Source: Gemmatimonadota bacterium (lineage in GTDB: Bacteria > Gemmatimonadota > Gemmatimonadetes > Gemmatimonadales > GWC2-71-9). From it: DNA of 64,000 nucleotides. Positions within the stretch are counted from its first letter, which is position 1, and each line of letters opens with the position of its first letter. Under the pieces are notes generated by a model. That model made no database searches, was not told the DNA's origin, and worked only from the letters and a program-made list of their open reading frames with translations. The DNA lies in assembly GCA_009692185.1 (NCBI GenBank), contig SHZT01000005.1, positions 84,068 to 148,067 of the forward strand, given 5' to 3'. The position numbers and the translations under genes were made by a program. Shown piece after piece: positions 44,837-45,990 of the stretch.

Positions 44837-44865
44837 TTGACACCTACAAAACCCCCGGCTAGGTT
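44837..44865 (+). promoter_or_regulatory. candidate sigma-70 promoter for the tRNA cluster (TTGACA-N17-TAGGTT)
   Basis: The hexamers were read directly. They lie about 50 nt upstream of tRNA-Ala. Confidence 0.4.
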
Positions 44866-44910: not shown

Positions 44911-44983
44911 GGGGGCGTAGCTCAGTTGGGAGAGCGCGTGAATGGCATTCACGAGGTCAGGGGTTCGATCCCCCTCGCCTCCA
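44911..44983 (+). tRNA. tRNA-Ala (anticodon GGC)
   Basis: Manual cloverleaf. The acceptor is GGGGGCG/CGCCTCC with the G3:U70 Ala identity pair. The anticodon loop is ATGGCAT and the T-loop is TTCGATC. CCA is not encoded. Confidence 0.93.
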
Positions 44984-45096
44984 CTGGCCGGCTGGGCGGC
45001 TAGACGGTTCGATGGTTAGTGGCAAAGATACGCGTAGACCCGACAGATCGAACGCCAAATCGCCTAACCGACCAACCGTTCAACCATCCGTTTCTC
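44984..45096. repeat. imperfect long palindrome in the tRNA-Ala/tRNA-Gly spacer built from GGTT-rich short motifs
   Basis: The left arm is ..GACGGTTCGATGGTTAGTGGC. The reverse complement of the right arm is ACGGATGGTTGAACGGTTGGTCGGTTAGGCGATTTGGC. The architecture matches the elements at 45524-45614 and 50733-50811, but the motif differs. Confidence 0.4.
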
Positions 45097-45169
45097 GCGG
45101 GAATAGCTCAGTTGGTAGAGCACAACCTTGCCAAGGTTGGGGTCGCGGGTTCGAGTCCCGTTTCCCGCT
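45097..45169 (+). tRNA. tRNA-Gly (anticodon GCC)
   Basis: Manual cloverleaf: acceptor GCGGGAA/TTCCCGC, anticodon loop TTGCCAA, T-loop TTCGAGT. Confidence 0.93.
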
Positions 45170-45206
45170 CTCGAGGAGTCGTTGGTAGTCAGTACAAGAC
45201 AAGCGT

Positions 45207-45443
45207 CGCGGGGTGGAGCAGTCTCGGAGGCAGAGCTGAAGCTCTGGCTCGCTGGTCTGAGGCGGCTCAAGCCGCCAAACAACGGCGCGGGGTGGAGCAG
45301 TCTCGGAGGCAGAGCTGAAGCTATGGCTCGCTGGTCTGAGGCGGCTCAAGCCGCCAAACAACGGCGCGGGGTGGAGCAGTCTCGGAGGCAGAGCTGAAGC
45401 GCTGGCTCGTTGGTCTGAGGCGGCTCAAGCCGCCAAACAACGG
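45207..45443 (+). repeat. 3 tandem 79-bp units, each starting with nt 1-18 of the initiator tRNA (CGCGGGGTGGAGCAGTCT)
   Basis: The units are 45207-45285, 45286-45364 and 45365-45443. Only three substitutions occur among the copies (45323, 45401, 45410). The array abuts the intact tRNA at 45444. Confidence 0.97.
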
Positions 45444-45517
45444 CGCGGGGTGGAGCAGTCTGGTAGCTCGCCGGGCTCATAACCCGGAGGTCGTGGGTTC
45501 AAATCCCACCCCCGCTA
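45444..45517 (+). tRNA. initiator tRNA-fMet (anticodon CAT)
   Basis: It is near-identical in layout to E. coli tRNA-fMet. Positions 1 and 72 are unpaired (C1 x U72). Three consecutive G:C pairs close the anticodon stem (CCGGG/CCCGG). The anticodon loop is CTCATAA and the discriminator is A73. Confidence 0.92.
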
Positions 45518-45523
45518 CTACAG

Positions 45524-45614
45524 ATCGGATGGGCGGATAGGCGCTTAGGCGGATGGTTGGGACGGCGGATCACGAGGGTACCATTCCGCCCATCCGGCCA
45601 TCCGCCTATCCGTC
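45524..45614. repeat. 8-nt stutter palindrome in the tRNA-fMet/tRNA-Val spacer (GGCGGATR-type units left, YATCCGYC units right)
   Basis: GGCGGAT occurs at 45532, 45548 and 45564, with degenerate 8-mers between. The right arm is ATTCCGCC CATCCGGC CATCCGCC TATCCGTC (45583-45614). Confidence 0.75.
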
Positions 45615-45621
45615 TCAGTTC

Positions 45622-45695
45622 GGGCGGTTAGCTCAGTTGGTTAGAGCGCCACGTTGACATCGTGGAGGTCACTAGTTCGAGCCTAGTACCGCCCA
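45622..45695 (+). tRNA. tRNA-Val (anticodon GAC)
   Basis: Manual cloverleaf: acceptor GGGCGGT/ACCGCCC, anticodon loop TTGACAT, T-loop TTCGAGC. Confidence 0.93.
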
Positions 45696-45707
45696 TCCGG
45701 TTTTCCA

Positions 45708-45781
45708 GCGCCCATAGCTCAACTGGATAGAGCGTTTGGCTACGGACCAAAAGGCTGGGGGTTCGAGTCCCTCTGGGCGCA
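45708..45781 (+). tRNA. tRNA-Arg (anticodon ACG)
   Basis: Manual cloverleaf: acceptor GCGCCCA/TGGGCGC, anticodon loop CTACGGA, T-loop TTCGAGT. Confidence 0.92.
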
Positions 45782-45788
45782 TGTTTCA

Positions 45789-45865
<77 letters not shown>

Positions 45866-45871
45866 CGATTT

Positions 45872-45945
<74 letters not shown>

Positions 45946-45990
45946 CTCGCCAGCCCCCAGCACATCCCGACATCGCCGATCCCGCTGGCC

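Follow-up and report, generated by a model that had tools for sequence, protein, structure and literature searches.

In the 64,000-nucleotide (nt) stretch of contig SHZT01000005.1 from a Gemmatimonadota bacterium (hereafter the window), three head-to-tail units of 79 nt lie directly in front of the gene for the initiator transfer RNA (tRNA-fMet), each beginning with the first 18 nt of that gene. We propose that this array is probably a variable-number tandem repeat, generated by duplication of a segment extending from the bases that immediately follow tRNA-Gly(GCC) to nt 18 of tRNA-fMet, with the gene fragments carried along as passengers. Comparison with relatives indicates that the duplication is old, inherited and variable in copy number, and that it was expanded recently in the window lineage. 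Duplication, by slippage, of a leader and the adjoining 5' end of an initiator tRNA would represent a second route to partial bacterial tRNA copies besides the scars of 3'-end integration, a route that is both inherited and variable in copy number.

A tandem repeat of spacer and gene start

Tandem Repeats Finder revealed a single array at 45199-45461, with a period of 79, 3.3 copies, 96% matches, no indels and a score of 489. The 18-mer CGCGGGGTGGAGCAGTCT, identical to nt 1-18 of tRNA-fMet, occurs exactly four times in the window (45207, 45286, 45365 and 45444), against a chance expectation of 0.01 occurrences. Each unit starts with this fragment and continues with a 61-nt interior, and unit 3 abuts the intact tRNA-fMet gene. 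The downstream tRNA-Met(CAT) carries the marks of an initiator, namely C1:A72 and GGG/CCC in the anticodon stem, as read directly from the sequence. The features of the array are as follows.

45171-45206, plus strand: probable eroded first copy of the Gly-to-fMet spacer, TCGAGG..TCGTTGGT..ACAAGCGT, without both hairpins
45207-45285, plus strand: unit 1, with tRNA-fMet nt 1-18 at 45207-45224, hairpin P1 at 45231-45246, hairpin P2 at 45261-45276 and the linker AAACAACGG
45286-45364, plus strand: unit 2, laid out as unit 1, with P1 broken by 45323 C>A and P2 at 45340-45355
45365-45443, plus strand: unit 3, adjoining the gene, with P1 broken by 45401 T>G and P2 at 45419-45434
45444-45517 (45517/8 in ARAGORN), plus strand: intact initiator tRNA-fMet (CAT), found by ARAGORN and by Rfam (tRNA, 65.3 bits)

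The units are 96-99% alike with a shared derived base, and substitutions at 45323 (C>A), 45401 (T>G) and 45410 (C>T) make up the complete list of differences between them. Hairpin P1 (CAGAGC-TGAA-GCTCTG) is intact in unit 1 only, the substitutions at 45323 and 45401 each removing one pair without compensation, and hairpin P2 (GGCGGC-TCAA-GCCGCC) is intact in all three units. The original prediction, made from the sequence of the window alone, had described the array with these coordinates, the 79-nt period, the tRNA-derived unit starts, the three substitutions and the state of both hairpins, and every one of these points was reproduced here.

The source of the interior was revealed by L183, one of the metagenome loci recovered by the scan described in the next section. 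Immediately behind tRNA-Gly, L183 carries a spacer that begins TCGAGGCAGAGCTGAAGCTCTG / TCGAGGCAGAGCTGAAGCTCTGACTC... and corresponds to the unit interior, and no gene fragment stands in front of it; two further units of fragment plus spacer follow, and then the tRNA. Because the interior directly follows tRNA-Gly in L183, the 61-nt interior (61-68 nt across the clade) is the native Gly-to-fMet spacer of a Gemmatimonadales clade, and the duplicated unit consists of this spacer plus tRNA-fMet nt 1-18. Junction comparison with L183 places the left end of the duplicated segment at the 3' boundary of tRNA-Gly (GC-TCT-CGAGG). The D-loop of tRNA-fMet reads AG-TCT-GGTAG and the junction between fragment and spacer reads AG-TCT-CGAGG, and the founding junction thus lies on a microhomology, TCT, of only 3 nt between the tRNA-Gly boundary and the D-loop. 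Such a junction speaks for a tandem duplication of the slippage type, comprising the spacer and fMet nt 1-18. The same junction, GCAGTCT|CG(G)A(G/A)GCAGAG, is found in the window, L004, L083, L117, L183, L158, L122, L189 and L108. Since all Gemmatimonadota loci share it, the founding event was single and old. The first event would have been replication slippage or illegitimate recombination, later gains and losses would reflect slipped mispairing or unequal exchange between the 79-86-nt repeats, and the extra copies would be neutral or would at most modulate tRNA-fMet maturation.

The 36 nt between tRNA-Gly and unit 1 (45171-45206) are probably an eroded first copy of the spacer. This segment opens with TCGAGG, as does the full spacer after tRNA-Gly in L183, and shares the 8-mer TCGTTGGT with unit 3. 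Its local alignment to the spacer is borderline (p=0.06), and a hidden Markov model of the spacer (nhmmer) gives no detection there.

Copy number differs among relatives at this same locus. The closest homologues of the neighbouring sigma-70 protein among GTDB species representatives are encoded by metagenome-assembled genomes of Gemmatimonadales, in which the Ala-Gly-[fMet]-Val-Arg-Pro cluster beside the sigma gene is conserved. Between tRNA-Gly and tRNA-fMet, one spacer copy is found in L004, L083, L158 and L189 (in L004 exactly one 79-nt unit), about two in L117, L122 and L108, and three in L183, where the second fragment carries C1>T; these counts of 1-3 come from independent assemblies. 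No unit precedes tRNA-fMet in L005, L006 and L013, which have unrelated spacers of 28, 92 and 127 nt, respectively. At unit offset 41, all three window units have G and every relative has A. In addition, the T of unit 3 at 45410 is a state common to unit 3 and L004 (at offset 46, T in both and C in units 1 and 2). The patterns at these two offsets indicate that the window expansion post-dates the split from the L004 lineage, and units 1 and 2 appear to be the youngest pair in the array. The original prediction had read the high identity of the window copies as recent amplification or ongoing homogenisation and had singled out copy number for comparison between strains; a young age of the copies is borne out by the two offsets, and the comparison gives one to three copies in the relatives.

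The spacer itself looks to be under constraint. Between the window and L004, the unit is identical at 76 of 79 positions (96%), making it as conserved as the tRNA genes, and the two tRNA-fMet genes are 100% identical. The corresponding comparison yields 45 matches for the Ala-Gly spacer against 41.8 for shuffles, and 39 matches for the fMet-Val spacer against 39.9 for shuffles; the adjacent sigma gene shows 80% DNA identity, with 58% at third codon positions. Within the clade, the most conserved parts are P1 with its flanks and the P2 stem, and the loops and the linker vary. One compensated change from C:G to U:A was found in P1, in the group of L122, L189 and L108. In multi-unit arrays, distal and gene-proximal fragments differ at 32 of 374 positions and the interiors at 114 of 1278, as computed after removal of the fragmentless first spacer copy of L183. 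The 18-nt fragments look like passengers, because the distal ones diverge about as fast as the spacer; nothing in the sequences points to a functional activity of the fragments themselves. The two spacer hairpins would be the selected part, probably as a module for processing or stability of the pre-tRNA. This module is dispensable, as the unit is missing from L005, L006 and L013, and L133 retains a unit without P1.

Several points weigh against the proposal of a duplicated spacer with passenger fragments. The 96% identity between the window and L004 could come from recombination anchored in the identical flanking tRNA genes. The gene-proximal fragments of the metagenome loci were picked by an exact-match search, which makes their perfect identity to the tRNA uninformative. 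The eroded first spacer copy is alignable only marginally, at the borderline p value given above, the 3-nt microhomology is weak evidence when taken alone, and the copy number in the window rests on a short-read metagenome assembly. Moreover, pure neutrality does not predict a tandem repeat that survives across species near synonymous saturation.

Arrays at other initiator tRNA loci and known systems

Metagenome contigs of the Joint Genome Institute were scanned for pairs of the 15-mer CGCGGGGTGGAGCAG with 45-75 nt between them. The scan yielded 108 loci, falling into 49 sequence clusters with 36 different tRNA-fMet sequences. At 104 of the 108 loci, a tRNA-Met begins at the last copy and no tRNA begins at the upstream ones; the contigs of L087, L155 and L181 break off within the last copy, and L180 lacks a tRNA altogether. 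Nine loci carry the Gemmatimonadota tRNA cluster (L083, L117, L183, L158, L122, L189, L108, L133 and, by tRNA sequence, their group). The architecture thus appears to be recurrent at initiator tRNA loci, many of them in rRNA operons. The fragments mostly end at nt 15-19, in the D-loop, and reach the anticodon loop in the L092 group, L093, L154, L169 and L177. Multiple units were found in L142 (four) and in L098, L143 and L169 (two each). The design of the search selects exact gene-proximal fragments, which limits any inference that tRNA-fMet is special; in a small control, 0 of 133 other tRNAs in the fetched loci had a similar copy of their 5' or 3' end close by. The searchable literature yielded no report of 5'-fragment arrays in front of an initiator tRNA.

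Many of these units lie in the spacer between 5S rRNA and tRNA-fMet at the end of an rRNA operon, as seen in the loci sampled in the Rfam scan. A tRNA-fMet at this position is typical of Alphaproteobacteria. The rRNA-operon contigs within L084-L190 hold one to four units per spacer, for example at the following positions.

L137, 684-769: unit of the rRNA-operon type
L129, 4507-4593: unit of the rRNA-operon type
L142, 1162-1509: units of the rRNA-operon type
L143, 486-666: units of the rRNA-operon type

A unit of this type consists of tRNA-fMet nt 1-17/19, a hairpin, an A-rich stretch, a nearly invariant CCGGGCT and a short linker. Per-sequence folds revealed that the hairpin occurs with at least nine outer-stem sequences, which covary around a conserved GA/GA-GC-GNRA core. 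As read from the sequences, the CCGGGCT motif matches D-loop nt 14-20 (AGCCCGG) of the cognate tRNA in reverse complement, and the two might pair. No Rfam family covers these units. In L097, L101, L123, L137, L181 and L084, CCCGCG or CCCCGCG is located 13-16 nt upstream of the first fragment; since it is complementary to CGCGGG(G) of the fragment, the extra acceptor 5' strand could sit in a local hairpin.

Longer copies were observed in other lineages. In L092, L096, L111, L114, L120, L149, L150 and L188, several of which are labelled human-gut metagenome, and also in L169 (4-144), L093, L154 and L177, the upstream copies comprise the complete 5' half of tRNA-fMet, reaching the anticodon loop (37-41 nt), and a hairpin follows; the two 70-nt units of L169 also retain the T-arm 5' strand and loop, and the half-copy of the L092 group differs from the downstream gene at several positions. 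L180 (659-805) contains at least four tandem units of 36-37 nt with no tRNA gene after them, each opening with the fMet 15-mer and continuing with the hairpin GCAGGCC-TTTCC-GGCCTGC. In L143, a chrB-a RNA was detected by Rfam at 851-936, where its 68 bits exceed the gathering score; the rRNA-operon-distal tRNA-fMet lies about 110 nt upstream of this match.

The closest known analogue of the window array seems to be the tyrT/rttR repeat of Escherichia coli, as its mirror image. The tyrT/tyrV trailer holds a 178-bp repeat in 3.1 copies with 95% matches, each unit ending in AATCCTTCCCCCACCACCA, the last 19 nt of tRNA-Tyr. Similar to it, the window array has head-to-tail units made of a terminal fragment of the adjacent intact tRNA plus flanking spacer; both have about three copies of about 95% identity, a tRNA piece of 18-19 nt and a location inside a tRNA transcription unit. 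However, the polarity is opposite: the E. coli repeat copies the 3' end and trailer downstream of an elongator tRNA, whereas the window array copies the 5' end and leader upstream of an initiator tRNA. The unit is also longer in E. coli (178 bp against 79 bp), and the tyrT-tyrV repeat is annotated with the stable small RNA RttR and the small open reading frame tpr. The window units have no match to the RtT RNA family of Rfam, either at the gathering threshold or at E<=10, and share no sequence similarity with the E. coli repeat.

Two further systems resemble the array in part. Tandem duplication with random loss in animal mitochondria involves slippage-type ends inside tRNA genes and leaves partial copies and variable-number repeats. 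That process concerns organelle genomes and usually larger units with whole genes, whereas the array lies in a bacterial chromosome, inherits the same junction across species and has conserved spacer hairpins. The 3'ETS-leuZ of E. coli is a structured spacer RNA of a tRNA operon with a demonstrated function as a sponge of small RNAs. The window unit is likewise a conserved, structured piece of a tRNA-operon spacer, in this case with probable co-transcription and with no similarity to 3'ETS-leuZ.

Alternative explanations

No terminator was predicted within the tRNA cluster, so the array is probably part of a polycistronic pre-tRNA transcript. This agrees with the original prediction, which had placed the array inside a tRNA operon and considered its transcription almost certain; the seven genes of the cluster are co-oriented. 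The array would then form an extended 5' leader of 273 nt instead of about 65 nt. It had further been suggested that the RNase P junction is reproduced four times and that the copies could serve as RNase P decoys. RNase P recognises the stack of acceptor and T arm, not the junction sequence, and the acceptor 3' strand (CCCCGC, complementary to CGCGGGG) is absent throughout 45171-45443. The units without this strand are thus not expected to be RNase P substrates, which leaves the last copy as the only plausible one and speaks against decoys. A single cut at 45443/45444 is expected, because only the last 18-mer continues into a foldable tRNA. The A-rich linker after P2 offers a plausible entry for an endonuclease, by which pieces of about 79 nt, each ending in a stable hairpin, could be released.

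Such pieces lead to the most probable of the alternatives, a functional RNA module, which we nevertheless consider rather unlikely. Units of about 79 nt would be cut from the pre-tRNA, perhaps through RNase E cleavage in the A-rich linker behind P2, and would accumulate like RttR; in a cis-acting version, the extra 5' strands would compete for the acceptor and D-stem 3' strands, thereby tuning the amount of mature initiator tRNA. For the mirror-image tyrT repeat, the annotation names the small RNA RttR as a product (bioRxiv 10.1101/2024.07.17.603846). A spacer as conserved as the tRNA genes between genomes near synonymous saturation is consistent with a module, and so are the compensated pair change in P1 and the conservation of its unpaired flanks. 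However, P1 contains an uncompensated mismatch in each of the two newest window copies, and the unit of L133 lacks P1. A role is favoured by the presence of this architecture before tRNA-fMet in 108 metagenome loci and 49 sequence clusters, with the rRNA-operon-type hairpin kept through at least nine different outer-stem sequences, whereas L005, L006 and L013 have tRNA-fMet at the same place behind unrelated spacers of 28-127 nt and the distal fragments decay as fast as the spacer.

When folding is modelled as a naive thermodynamic ensemble, each of the four 5' copies has a similar low probability (0.03-0.08) of pairing with the acceptor 3' strand, as the cis version would have it, and the 5' copies may compete by misfolding in this model, which ignores tertiary structure. 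Folding of single units and of the whole array, which the original prediction had named as a check, gave modest z-scores (-1.7 to -3.1 for single units), and the minimum-energy folds differ between the units, which counts against a module.

An extension of the module reading is that a structured leader plus the exact first 15-19 nt of the initiator tRNA forms a selected pre-tRNA module rather than debris in several lineages, with the Gemmatimonadales tRNA cluster and the 5S-to-tRNA-fMet spacers of rRNA operons among its settings, acting as a processed small RNA or as a cis competitor for the tRNA 3' strands and setting the yield or timing of initiator tRNA maturation. We regard this as speculative and unlikely. 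If it were true, copy number would be a tuning knob. The initiator tRNA is the one tRNA whose dosage limits translation initiation, and a functional module would provide a new handle on the control of its supply; the conserved spacer hairpins are candidates for a processing or small-RNA element beside it.

An assembly artefact, affecting the copy number or the whole array, is improbable. The window derives from a short-read metagenome contig (ENA ERZ1305449, with the flanking sigma-70 protein on the contigs of that sample), and the Logan contigs available for this organism break off within tRNA-Ala and tRNA-Arg(CCG), never crossing the array. The contig of the closest GTDB relative, L003, likewise ends at tRNA-Gly. 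However, the existing unit-to-unit junction requires at least two units, which are thus real, and three units are likely because three substitutions distinguish them. In addition, the gap of 1321 nt between the sigma and TPR genes recurs in another contig from this sample, and independent assemblies of relatives hold one, two and three copies, with up to four in other lineages. In L003 (1-75; sigma protein 94% identical), the contig ends one base past the 3' end of tRNA-Gly, where the array would begin, which suggests that the array breaks this assembly. Arrays of this kind break short-read assemblies at tRNA clusters and can confuse tRNA annotation.

The original prediction had raised the possibility of a decayed tRNA copy. 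Under this explanation, the units would stem from an old tandem duplication of the whole tRNA-fMet gene, and the 61 nt would be remains of its D, anticodon and T arms. Visual inspection suggests a similarity of GCTCGCTGGTCT to GCTCGCCGGGCT, which spans the D-stem 3' strand and the anticodon stem, GGCGGC-TCAA-GCCGCC is vaguely reminiscent of a T arm, and a few unrelated metagenome loci (L169, L092 and L093) keep long tRNA-derived pieces. The resemblance does not exceed chance: local alignment of the interior to the rest of the tRNA scores 16, a value equalled by 44% of shuffles (p=0.44). ARAGORN found no tRNA in 45171-45443, and Rfam tRNA (RF00005) gave no match in the units even at E<=10. More generally, no Rfam family was detected over the units, in the window at the gathering threshold and at E<=10 or in 20 related loci at the gathering threshold; outside the units, these scans gave only tRNAs, rRNAs and chance-level matches. 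With the L183 interior being an ordinary spacer right after tRNA-Gly, with no fragment before it, we consider decay from a full tRNA very improbable.

Integrase-made tRNA duplications copy the 3' part of the gene, kilobases apart and together with an integrase, and are the usual source of prokaryotic tRNA fragments, according to PMC9897764. Attachment-site scars of an integrative element targeting the 5' part of tRNA-fMet would share with the array a direct repeat of a partial tRNA gene beside an intact copy, and the 18-nt direct repeats flanking 61-nt segments, with an intact tRNA restored, superficially resemble attL and attR. Nevertheless, every tested defining feature differs. Duplication here involved the gene's 5' end (nt 1-18) instead of its 3' end, the segment between the repeats is native spacer of only 61 nt, and the Pfam families of the neighbours include no integrase or other mobile gene within about 5 kb of the array. 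Searches of 2.9 million viral contigs with the general pattern and with hairpin P1 gave zero matches. To our knowledge, circles of 79 bp are also too small to serve as recombination substrates. This explanation is hardly credible, as the original prediction had anticipated when it noted the copied 5' end and the lack of a nearby mobile gene.

Further candidates were considered. A dispersed family of the repetitive extragenic palindrome or miniature inverted-repeat transposable element kind has no further copies in the window, and neither a pattern search allowing 3 mismatches nor nhmmer detected any in the fetched loci outside the Gly-to-fMet spacer; the array is neither the unique oddity nor the dispersed family between which the original prediction had asked to decide, being locus-specific, inherited at one to three copies and paralleled in other lineages. 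A coding function does not fit a period of 79, which is not a multiple of 3, and no gene is called there in the source assembly. Amplification of a promoter is unsupported, as the promoter scan found no sigma-70-type site in or near the units. A split or intron-containing tRNA was considered and rejected.

The tRNA cluster and neighbouring genes

The array lies in a co-oriented cluster of seven tRNA genes predicted by ARAGORN and Rfam: Ala-GGC (44911), Gly-GCC (45097), Met-CAT (45444), Val-GAC (45622), Arg-ACG (45708), Pro-CGG (45789) and Arg-CCG (45872). The features outside the array are listed below.

44911-44984, plus strand: tRNA-Ala(GGC), first gene of the cluster, found by ARAGORN and Rfam (64 bits)
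45097-45170, plus strand: tRNA-Gly(GCC), found by ARAGORN and Rfam (71.5 bits)
45526-45612, plus strand: long imperfect hairpin in the fMet-to-Val spacer, outside the repeat, from inverted repeats I1-I3, I6 and I9 and the centroid fold
45622-45946, plus strand: tRNA-Val(GAC), tRNA-Arg(ACG), tRNA-Pro(CGG) and tRNA-Arg(CCG), found by ARAGORN and Rfam

By their Pfam families, the neighbours of the array encode a sigma-70 factor, MlaE, an ABC protein and MlaD, a NUDIX protein, a TPR protein, a peptidase M50 and Rho. The sole terminator-like site is located on the minus strand, downstream of tRNA-Arg(CCG), the last gene of the cluster. The element TTGACA-N17-TAGGTT was noticed by eye at 44837-44865, in the divergent region that separates the sigma-70 gene from tRNA-Ala, below the threshold of the promoter scan; it is a possible promoter of the cluster.

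A tRNA-fMet between tRNA-Gly and tRNA-Val is present in the window, L004, L005, L006 and L013 and absent from this position in L007, L008, L010, L011 and L018, and is therefore a variable member of the cluster. The fMet-to-Val spacers of these Gemmatimonadota clusters are rich in short direct repeats of the GGCGG/GACGG type. A long hairpin occupies the same position of this spacer in the window, L004, L005, L006, L083, L158 and L183, and its sequences are unrelated between the genomes, indicating that the structure is conserved whereas the sequence is not.

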